From Somniosus microcephalus (lineage: Eukaryota), in NCBI GenBank assembly GCA_052327205.1, contig CM126230.1, positions 22,630,001-22,694,000 on the forward strand: a stretch of 64,000 bases of DNA, given 5' to 3'. Of the stretch, positions 28,016 to 31,100 are shown in pieces (position 1 is the first letter of the stretch; each line of letters opens with the position of its first letter). The notes beneath the pieces are model-generated. The model searched no databases, was not told the DNA's origin, and worked only from the letters and a program-made list of their open reading frames with translations. A program made the position numbers and the translations under genes.

Positions 28016-28149
28016 TCAATGGTTCTCATCATCCATCTTCTTCATCATCTGTCAATGATGTGTCCTCCATGTCAACAGATCCAACATTGGCCTCAGATAC
28101 CGACAGCAGTCTAGAGACGTCGGCGGGACCTCTGGGCTGTTGCAGATGA
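28004..28149 (+). CDS. MAPK8: JNK1 last exon, p54 (long) isoform via acceptor 5 nt downstream
   Basis: ca[57 protein letters not shown]. Confidence 0.95.
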
Positions 28150-28153
28150 CTAG
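28147..28153 (+). promoter_or_regulatory. UGA-CUAG stop-codon readthrough context
   Basis: p54 stop reads TGA CTAG; next in-frame stop TAA at 28186-28188. Confidence 0.7.
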
Positions 28154-31100
28154 CCTCCCTCTCTCTGGGTTCTTACTGTTTGCGCTAAATGATAGAGAGG
28201 GTAGACCAGCTTTTAAAAAGCTCCAACTGCGTTTTAATTTTATTGGAATCAGTTTGCCATAGAATATGACTTTGAATTATGTTGGATTTACATACAGTAA
28301 CTTAAATACAGCAACGTTTAGTGTGGGGCAAGTAACCCTAAAGCATGACTTGTACATTTGTAAAGGACTGACATTTAACACCATTACATTTGGGTCTGTT
28401 TTGGGAGGAAAAACGATGACAAAATACAAATAAGCTCCAGCCTCTCGGTGCGCAGAGTTAGGCTACTTTTCACTCTTTTCTCACTTGCATGAAGTGGTTT
28501 ATGCCGTTTAAACATTCTGGGATCTTTTCTACTCTGGTTGGCTCTGGCTTACTGCTCGTTGTGGACTAGGACAATAAGTTATCATGTTTCGGCCTAACCT
28601 GCCAGTGCCCGTAATAAACTTTGGTTGACTAGGTGGCCTACCTGTTTACATTACACCTCCAAAGCTGAACCTGAACGTGTTTTCAATTTTAATGCAGCCA
28701 TTTTGGGTAAGGCTACTGGGTGCAAAGTTAGGAGTATTCAAACAGGGTATTAAAAAAAAAAAAAAAAAAATCTCCTGTTGTGTAAGCTAATGGAGAGGAG
28801 TAGAATTGGGAAGCGAAAGTGTGACACCGGAAAGATTAGGCACCGCAAGTGAAGACCGCACAGAATGAGTTTTATTTCTTGAGTGAATGCCAGCTCTAAG
28901 CTTATTCTAATAAGATCACATTGCCCCTAATAAGCTGTTCTTTCTAATTGCGAGTGATTTGGTTAATTCCTTTCTGTTCTACTCGGAGTTCACAATGTAC
29001 AGTGCCCTGCAATAATAATGGTTTAATTTGTAACTGGCTTTTTCCTAACATAACTTGTCAAAATGCCAACCTCGACGAGAATCGATGGAGTAGGGTTATA
29101 TTCCAGGCAAACATTACACACTTCACAAGTGACAGAACTAACATATCAAAAGAGGTTCTTAAATAATTAATGAACTACCTCACACAATCAATGTACCATT
29201 TCAAGGCCATCAAGCTGCCCACTTTCCTACCATTCAGTACAATATGGAATGTAACTGTTTTAATTTATTTCTGTTGTTAAAGTGTCTCTGGTCCACCACC
29301 AGGAGTTAACCAAATTCACAGCTGAAACTGTTGTGTAGAAGGAAATATTGTTATCCATGTACTTTGTATGTTAGAGAGATGTTTAATGCGTTTGTATATT
29401 TGTTTTCTCATAGTCAATGTGCAATAATCTTTGCAAATTGTGATACAAATTTGATTGTAAAGATGGGAATAGCTGTGTTGTGGTATACTTATTTTGGAGG
29501 ACAGTGTGGGGATGTGAAGGGATTGTAGTACTTTTTTTCCCATTTTTACTTCAGTTTAAAAACTAGTGTACAATGAATTGTAAGATTGTAATAAATGCCA
29601 CGCTTAGGTAGCTGAGGGCATGGTGCCTGCATCTGCTCCTTGGGTTAGTTTATTTTTTTAGTGCGTACTTGCGTTGAATAATTGCTGTGTATCTTTTCCC
29701 CCCTAAATGTTTATATCCAGTATGGACTACAGGAATGTATGCAGTAAATTGGATATTACAAAAAATTAGCCGAGATGATGATTATTGTTAATGAATCACG
29801 TTCATCTTAATAATTGACCATTTTTGTACCGAAAATAGCCATCTTTACTCAGTTATAAGTAACAAAATGGAATGAAAGTAACATGCCTCATGATTGCAAC
29901 AATGAGCTGACCCAGGCGTTTGCACTCTAGGATTTTTGGGATGTTCATTTTACAGTAGATGAGTGAACTAAGGCCAGCTGTCTCCCAGGGCATGGGATGA
30001 TTTACAGATTTTCTAAAATACTACCTTTTAAACAGCTTCTGAAATTATAACTCCTTCTATTAAGAATTCTCTCAACCTCCCTCAGCACAGACAGGGCTTT
30101 AGTCCTTTTGTGCCAGAAATGGATCATCCTTTTATGCTGGTGATTTTGAGCTAGACTGATTTAAATGCTTGTCTGATTAGACTGATTATAAAAGGATTCA
30201 CAGTAGGAGTTAAATTACATTTTGGATTTTATGCAGGGTAGAAAATCCTATTTGGAATCCCCCCCCCCCCCCCCCCAAATAAGTAACTGCATTCTAAAAT
30301 TAAGAACCAGCTTAAAAATTAGATGTAAACTTTATAGTTTTTATATTTTCAGTCTTTAGATTTTAGTACTTAACTATTTTAATGTGAAGCTTAACATATC
30401 ACATTCCCCAACCCCCCCTCCTCGTGCAGTGAAATCACCTGTTAAATTATAGATAAAAAAGCAAAGAATATAAATGCTGGAAATCTTCGCAGAAAATGCT
30501 GCAAATACACAACCGGCAGACAGCAGCTGAAAGAGAAACGGGTTAAAGTTCGTGGTAGCATCTCGTAATCAGTTCAAGAATTATAAACCTGCCTCTTCTC
30601 TTTACAGATGTGGACTGTCCTGTTCTGTATTTGGCAGTATTTTTTGTGTTTACTTCAATTGTAAAACTTGTTTTTAGTGTCTTTCTTAAACCACCGGAAT
30701 ACCAAAATCACTGCACACTGCTGGTGTATACGTTGTCATTTTGAATAATCTATTTTACATTTAAATTACTATTTTAAAAAATCACTCATCCTTAGTTCCA
30801 CAGTGCTTATTCTCTATTCTCCTCCCCCAGAAAAAATTCCACCAATTATGTTTGCATTTTCACACACTTTTACTGTTTGTGTGTGTCGTATACAAATAAT
30901 TATGCTGTTAGTGCCAAATTTGTAAGGGGGTGGGGGGGGGGGGGGAAATAGTTTCCGTTAATTGTAATGTTTTCACAAAATTTGCCACTCGCGTGCAAAT
31001 TGCCCTCTGGCCTAATTCCTCCAGTAAGCCATTTTTTTCTATATCTGCAGTGACTCTTGGAGAACAGTTCCGACCTTTTACGTCGCTACATTTTGTGAAT

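Follow-up and report, generated by a model that had tools for sequence, protein, structure and literature searches.

The UGA-CUAG stop of shark MAPK8 (JNK1) p54 as a candidate site of low-level translational readthrough

Readthrough of UGA-CUAG stops is a well-known phenomenon, and the closest described system is MAPK10, the gene for JNK3. According to the accessible part of Loughran et al. 2014 (PMC4132726), MAPK10 is read through at about 14%, and UGA-CUA alone gives 1.5%. The MAPK10 tail always has 13 residues, UGC-AGG precedes the stop, and CUAG is present in 68/73 cases. Bases are conserved to +12, a 7-bp pairing forms across the stop, and conservation of the readthrough is reported to reach the lampreys (PMC4132726). 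A mutational scan, likewise available in part, gave 1.2-1.8% for MAPK10 (bioRxiv 2026.07.14.738498). In that scan, only positions -3 to +4 acted alike between genes, the -1 codon had the strongest upstream effect, with Arg codons differing widely, and an interaction between upstream and downstream bases was specific to MAPK10. C was the best +5 base, altering the bases from +5 to +12 took away as much as 1.2 of 1.76 points, and CUAA was not only tolerated, it was the single variant to give higher MAPK10 readthrough. What the MAPK10 extension does is, according to that source, still unknown. For the wider class, the consulted sections of Loughran et al. 2018 (PMC5868278) report that readthrough was 1.3-6.7% in each of 17 additional human UGA_CUAG contexts, compared to 0.7% for UGA_C, and that UGA_CUAG is depleted at human stops (23 observed vs 39 expected). 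In LDHB and MDH1, readthrough of UGA-CUAG leads to a peroxisomal signal on a short tail (PMC4359377, PMC4207609, both seen in part).

The ends of the long JNK forms are also modification sites, according to sources available in part. S-acylation was reported at the terminal CCR of JNK3 (bioRxiv 2020.11.17.387191) and at the GCR of p54-JNK2 (bioRxiv 2020.11.17.387191, PMC11417247, PMC7464089). In neurons, where p46 is the main form of JNK1, no acylation of JNK1 was detected (bioRxiv 2020.11.17.387191, PMC11417247, PMC7464089).

The window analysed here is a 64,000-nucleotide stretch from Somniosus microcephalus. The gene of interest is, by its sequence, a chondrichthyan MAPK8 (JNK1), as an earlier note on this DNA had proposed. 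The exon at 10414-10599 scored 120 bits against solved JNK1, 107 against JNK3, and at most 97 against JNK2. Shark MAPK8 and MAPK8/JNK of the chimaera Callorhinchus match the last exon at 100% identity, and that of skates matches it at 98%. In a tree of 22 proteins, built on window residues 151-427 with no outgroup, the window protein falls in the chondrichthyan MAPK8 clade (98/95), within MAPK8 (95/97) and apart from MAPK10 (98/97). The bit scores and this placement exclude a misassigned MAPK10. Both mutually exclusive exon-6 forms of MAPK8 are found in the window. A convergently transcribed gene has its coiled-coil terminal exon at 47637-47894 (-); homology searches gave no gene name for it, and it is putatively ARHGAP22-like, ARHGAP22 being the expected synteny neighbour of MAPK8. 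The last MAPK8 intron carries an inverted 343-bp duplication (about 25619-25958 and 27094-27436, 88% identical), and a long CT-rich low-complexity intron array at 14400-19700 includes a 500-N gap at 19090-19589. The pol region of an LTR retrotransposon, with protease, RT, RNase H, and integrase domains (Pfam), spans 49045-52912 (+) across two frames.

Two alternative acceptors, 5 nt apart, define the ends of the kinase. Use of the upstream one, after the AG at 27997-27998, gives the short p46 form, whose last coding segment (27999..28014, +) ends in AQVQQ with the stop TGA-TCAA. The downstream acceptor, after CACAG, opens the 143-nt p54 terminal coding exon (28004..28146, +), which reads from GAAMING to GPLGCCR. 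Positions 28138-28188 run from TGT TGC AGA through TGA CTA GCC to TTG CGC TAA. The p54 frame is closed by TGA at 28147-28149 (+) after AGA as the last sense codon, and CTAG follows directly at 28150-28153 (+), in frame with the p54 exon. The predicted readthrough extension (28150-28185, +) has 12 sense codons, LASLSLGSYCLR, i.e., 13 residues including the recoded UGA, and is ended by a second in-frame stop, TAA, at 28186-28188 (+). The stop context and the 13 added residues in frame with the GPLGCCR exon thus stand as first described, with the same sequence and coordinates. TGACTAG occurs twice in the window, both strands counted, among 2226 TGA triplets.

Other modes of recoding were considered. 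No SECIS family matched the window between 27900 and 32500 at E values up to 5, and selenocysteine recoding of the UGA was ruled out on the absence of a SECIS element from that interval. The MAPK10-type 7-bp pairing folds in the JNK3 locus described below and does not fold in the window, so a MAPK10-like hairpin was dismissed too. As a candidate for structure-stimulated readthrough, an 8-bp stem 3' of the stop (28157-28164 with 28194-28201) was equalled by 13-34 of 500 shuffles, with folding energy z-scores of +0.1 to +0.7, and is energetically not significant. In addition, an ATG overlapping the p54 stop (ATGA) opens a 38-codon frame at 28146-28262 (+), for which a homologue search found none.

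Close relatives were compared using contigs of four organisms (X10, X12, X14, and X22; one run each), drawn from the 22 runs of eight organisms that match the stretch. The three runs with the lowest word share were taken together with one at 0.90; similarity of the four organisms to the window is 93-97%, and no ray or chimaera is known to be among them. None of the matching runs listed is recorded as RNA. In all four, a MAPK8 contig joins the 3' end of the penultimate exon to the p54 acceptor. As these junctions are spliced across a 5.9-kb intron, the contigs derive from transcripts, and the p54 stop is used in spliced mRNA in 4/4 contigs, all from organisms other than that of the window. The p54 acceptor is seen in every contig, and mammalian neurons are reported, in the partly available sources cited above, to contain mostly p46-JNK1. 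Sharks may favour the long JNK1 form; the contigs carry no isoform ratio.

Forty of the 48 substitutions are listed with their positions, and the other eight are known from per-run tallies. None of the 40 falls in 28004-28172, synonymous sites included. Two of them touch the extension and second stop, neither with an effect on the encoded peptide: one organism has T>C at 28173, in a Ser codon that remains Ser, and two of the four have TAG for TAA (28188), probably by one event. The first indel among those listed lies 10 nt 3' of the second stop, which is retained. Seven of the eight further substitutions are in X22 and one, a T>C, is in X14 and X10; the latter most likely lies on a piece of a JNK2-type paralogue, since its support is lower than that of the rows at depth 19. 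As none of the eight starts from G, the +4 G is kept in all four organisms. The whole UGA-CUAG motif is unchanged in X14, X12, and X10. Retention of the motif in other shark-like organisms, on which the earlier proposal depended, was therefore found for the entire motif in 3/4 and for its +4 G in 4/4.

The listed changes are distributed as 0/143 nt in the coding exon, 2/39 in the extension with its stop, 4/142 in the next part of the UTR, and 34/410 in the distal UTR; the 552-nt 3' UTR comparison region (28189-28740, +) contains at least 38 substitutions and at least 12 indels. The extension is thus no better conserved than the 142 nt that follow it. The probability of two silent changes by chance is 0.09-0.19 and that of no indel in 39 nt is 0.43, and the conservation test is weak because the whole exon is invariant. 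The earlier note had proposed a check of codon conservation in the extension; both listed changes are silent, at the chance levels just given. The coding exon, for its part, shows no listed synonymous change where the rate of the distal UTR would predict about three (p 0.05). The comparison indicates nucleotide-level constraint on both sides of the stop, strong on the dual-frame exon.

Distant relatives were sought in metagenomes, where 92 stretches yielded three JNK loci. The first (L001) is a bird-type MAPK8 whose last exon is identical to seven named bird proteins; it reads AGA UGA CUAC and is open for 41 codons. The second (L002) is a JNK3 with AGG UGA CUAG CCGCC and 13 codons before a UGA, and the third (L003) is a JNK2 with CGA UGA UCAG and 18 codons. 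After the stop, the window matches the JNK3 locus at 8/9 bases from +1 to +9 and then at 0/3, and it matches the bird-type JNK1 and JNK2 loci at 3/9 bases over +1 to +9. Two bird-type MAPK8 records (L001, 1648-1773, and P0012) each show UGA-CUA before an open stretch of exactly 41 codons, and the two stretches are related in sequence. Searches of viral contigs (0/36 stretches) found no relative, and in prokaryote genomes the one hit (1/29) was bacterial and due to chance. A +2-frame search across the stop for ray or chimaera DNA produced no candidate.

Further contexts were taken from database proteins called with UGA as Trp; their taxa are assigned by likeness, and Leu in them is not necessarily CUA. 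Among these proteins, no shark JNK1 record carrying the tail was found. The JNK1-type set has 13 records in eight clusters, with Leu first in 13/13, followed by Ser (12) or Leu (1). The +4 G is implied in none of the 13, all from outside the sharks, and tail lengths vary. Since Leu follows the UGA in every one of these records, the +4 G alone is special to the window, given orthology, and has a chance of about 1 in 4. All 11 JNK3-type records read L[A/T]ACLRNP, with the next W after 13 residues and Ala, i.e., CUAG, in seven and Thr in four (P0103, P0104, P0171, and P0172, implying CUAA). JNK2-type records have Leu first in 0/11, and in the four with a GCR end the second residue is Ala or Val, which implies the +4 G. 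The second codon therefore starts with G in 7/11 JNK3-type and 4/4 GCR-ending JNK2-type records.

The extension peptide scored above chance against none of the eight JNK1 tails; the best, a carp-like tail whose tenth residue is Cys, was reached by 664/5000 nulls. Against JNK3 tails, 180-673 of 5000 nulls scored as high, and a JNK2 control tail scored best (13/5000). Homology of the peptide to JNK1 and JNK3 tails was therefore dropped. The CLR tripeptide common to the extension and the JNK3 tail appears in 3% of shuffles, a post hoc count, and an extension length within one codon of that of MAPK10 has a chance of about 0.11. The extension is 12 codons long in the window and 41 in the bird-type gene, and is variable in teleost-like records. 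A pan-vertebrate conserved length with a coding signature, as in AQP4, MAPK10, OPRK1, and OPRL1, was not found for MAPK8, nor does CUAG extend throughout vertebrates, as bird-type DNA has CUAC.

These contexts suggest by parsimony that the JNK1/JNK3 ancestor likely had UGA-CUA-G, which shark JNK1 would have kept, and that the bony-vertebrate JNK1 genes seen have lost the G. Against this reading, Leu at +1 is found in none of the 11 JNK2-type records, and the tree has no outgroup. The JNK branching order is not stated in the available parts of PMC4494069 or bioRxiv 2024.10.01.616093. The proposal that readthrough is ancestral to JNK1 and JNK3 consequently divides into two parts. The context shared with JNK3 supports it. 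A conserved JNK3-like extension, on the other hand, was not recovered: the peptide aligns no better than chance with JNK1 tails of other vertebrates, the JNK1 lengths are 12 vs 41 codons, and MAPK10-specific elements are missing.

The explanation considered best, with a confidence slightly above even, is that the UGA-CUAG of the shark MAPK8 p54 stop was inherited from the JNK gene before the vertebrate duplications and would leak at about 1-3%, adding X-LASLSLGSYCLR. By analogy with human genes, the CUAG bases would slow release-factor action and a near-cognate tRNA would decode the UGA; Trp, Arg, and Cys tRNAs are the near-cognates that read it. Translation would then terminate 12 codons past the UGA. 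In MAPK10 the signal would have been retained and tuned, with the peptide fixed at 13 codons, shark MAPK8 would have kept only the core and the next few bases, and bird and teleost-like MAPK8 would have kept UGA and the Leu codon and lost the +4 G. By sequence, the window has the transferable core without the MAPK10 tuning. Low-level readthrough of shark JNK1-p54 is likely on these grounds; AGA as the last codon, where MAPK10 has an invariant AGG, and the bases that differ from MAPK10 at +7 and +10 to +12 count against it.

Several rival explanations bear on this assignment. The assembled gene copy has two consecutive exons that are one base too long: an upstream exon at 19857..19921 (+) has 65 nt instead of the 64 expected from a reference protein (P0005), and the penultimate exon at 22036..22114 (+), with its donor GT at 22115, has 79 nt instead of the 78 of the bird-type locus. 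Due to these two +1 frameshifts, the assembled copy has no continuous reading frame as far as the p54 stop, and a truly broken gene would never reach that stop in this organism. Such a loss is very improbable. Both extra bases, one in a C run and the other near 22043, are within short single-letter runs, the remaining exons keep phase, named shark MAPK8 proteins are intact, and over 273 columns the window protein otherwise shares 98% identity with MAPK8 of Heptranchias. The position of the bases and this identity make assembly error likely, and the two long exons are probably such errors. A more serious rival is that the bases after the stop are passengers, held by nucleotide constraint on the whole exon, with readthrough as negligible noise and the G perhaps a chance third-letter state. 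Such constraint could come from the choice between the two closely spaced acceptors (5 nt), from 3' UTR elements in the p46 mRNA, or from slow evolution in sharks. The deficit of synonymous changes in the 143 coding nt, the equally conserved proximal UTR, the lack of the +4 G in JNK1 records outside sharks, and the unconserved peptide agree with it, as does the listing of the JNK dual-frame exon as conserved across vertebrates (bioRxiv 2026.05.28.727796, available in part). Nevertheless, bird-type and teleost-like JNK1 have kept Leu at +1 despite divergence of the bases that follow, the match to JNK3 reaches +9 and so involves more than one G, and UGA_CUAG is depleted among human stops (PMC5868278, in part); the passenger account is considered unlikely, although of appreciable weight.

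The opposite view, that readthrough in cartilaginous fishes is programmed and selected, gives the 13-residue tail a function. Extended shark JNK1 retains both cysteines of CCR, which is moved inward, and gains a third Cys three residues from the new end; the Cys-x-Arg terminus so formed would alter S-acylation and membrane targeting of JNK1-p54. The changes listed in the tail being silent, the retained second stop, the near-MAPK10 length, the p54 junction in all four contigs, and the CLR shared with JNK3 can be cited in its favour. The extension tail fits neither the CaaX nor the PTS1 consensus, which speaks against it. The silent changes amount to just two events, and the peptide shows no homology above chance, with the JNK2 control ahead of the JNK3 tails. 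JNK3 is S-acylated at CCR (bioRxiv 2020.11.17.387191, in part), but the sources cited above found no S-acylation of JNK1 in the neurons that they examined. A selected readthrough peptide in shark JNK1 is possible and unsupported, a palmitoylation switch by readthrough is speculation, and the programmed reading as a whole appears rather improbable. Its boldest version, equally doubtful, places programmed readthrough in the CCR-ending JNK gene before the vertebrate genome duplications; shark JNK1 would then carry a full selected S-acylation switch to the Cys-x-Arg end and all jawed-vertebrate JNK1 genes a weaker UGA-CUA leak, readthrough would govern the lipid anchoring of long JNK forms, and the MAPK10 extension would be explained.

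With inheritance of a leaky core as the preferred reading, the locus would have a wider use. The series CUAG (sharks), CUAC (birds), and UCAG (JNK2) is a natural test of which bases set readthrough and of whether the leak or the peptide is kept by selection. If shark JNK1 reads through, the signal predates the JNK1/JNK3 split and was partly lost in bony vertebrates. No case of MAPK8 readthrough was found in the literature searched; most subscription papers were outside its reach, and a prior mention is possible. MAPK8 or JNK does not occur in the main text of PMC4132726, no MAPK appears in PMC5100048, and, in the parts available, MAPK8 is absent from the primer table of PMC5868278 and MAPK8, 9, and 10 are not named in the text supplements of PMC4359377 and PMC4207609. 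The shark JNK1-p54 stop is thus a candidate addition to the UGA-CUAG readthrough class, the mechanism of which is already known.

Compared to the members of that class, the locus shares some features and lacks others. LDHB and MDH1 have tails with a peroxisomal signal, whereas the MAPK8 tail ends in CLR, outside the PTS1 consensus. MAPK10 (Loughran et al. 2014, PMC4132726; Toledano et al.) is the nearest relative: the terminal exons are paralogous, both end in CCR before UGA-CUAG with C at +5, eight of the first nine bases agree, and a short in-frame tail begins with Leu-Ala. The window has AGA as its last codon, 12 codons, and UAA/UAG as second stop, in contrast to AGG, 13 codons, and UGA in MAPK10. 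It differs from MAPK10 at +7 and +10 to +12, so that 4/8 bases match at +5 to +12, and its peptide is unrelated to the MAPK10 tail beyond two residues and, unlike that tail, is not conserved across vertebrates. VDR (Loughran et al. 2018, PMC5868278, in the part available) likewise has the motif at an annotated stop and a weak coding signal, with the frame and second stop kept in one clade, as they appear to be among the shark-like organisms compared. However, 6.7% readthrough and the product were measured for VDR, while the MAPK8 case is known from sequence, and the motif looks ancestral in MAPK8 and newly gained in VDR. As far as PMC4132726 could be consulted, OPRK1 and OPRL1 are paralogues with a pre-duplication UGA-CUAG and mostly diverged tails, like the JNK pair; in every orthologue of either, CUAG and the length of the tail are retained, whereas the full MAPK8 motif was seen only in shark-like organisms.
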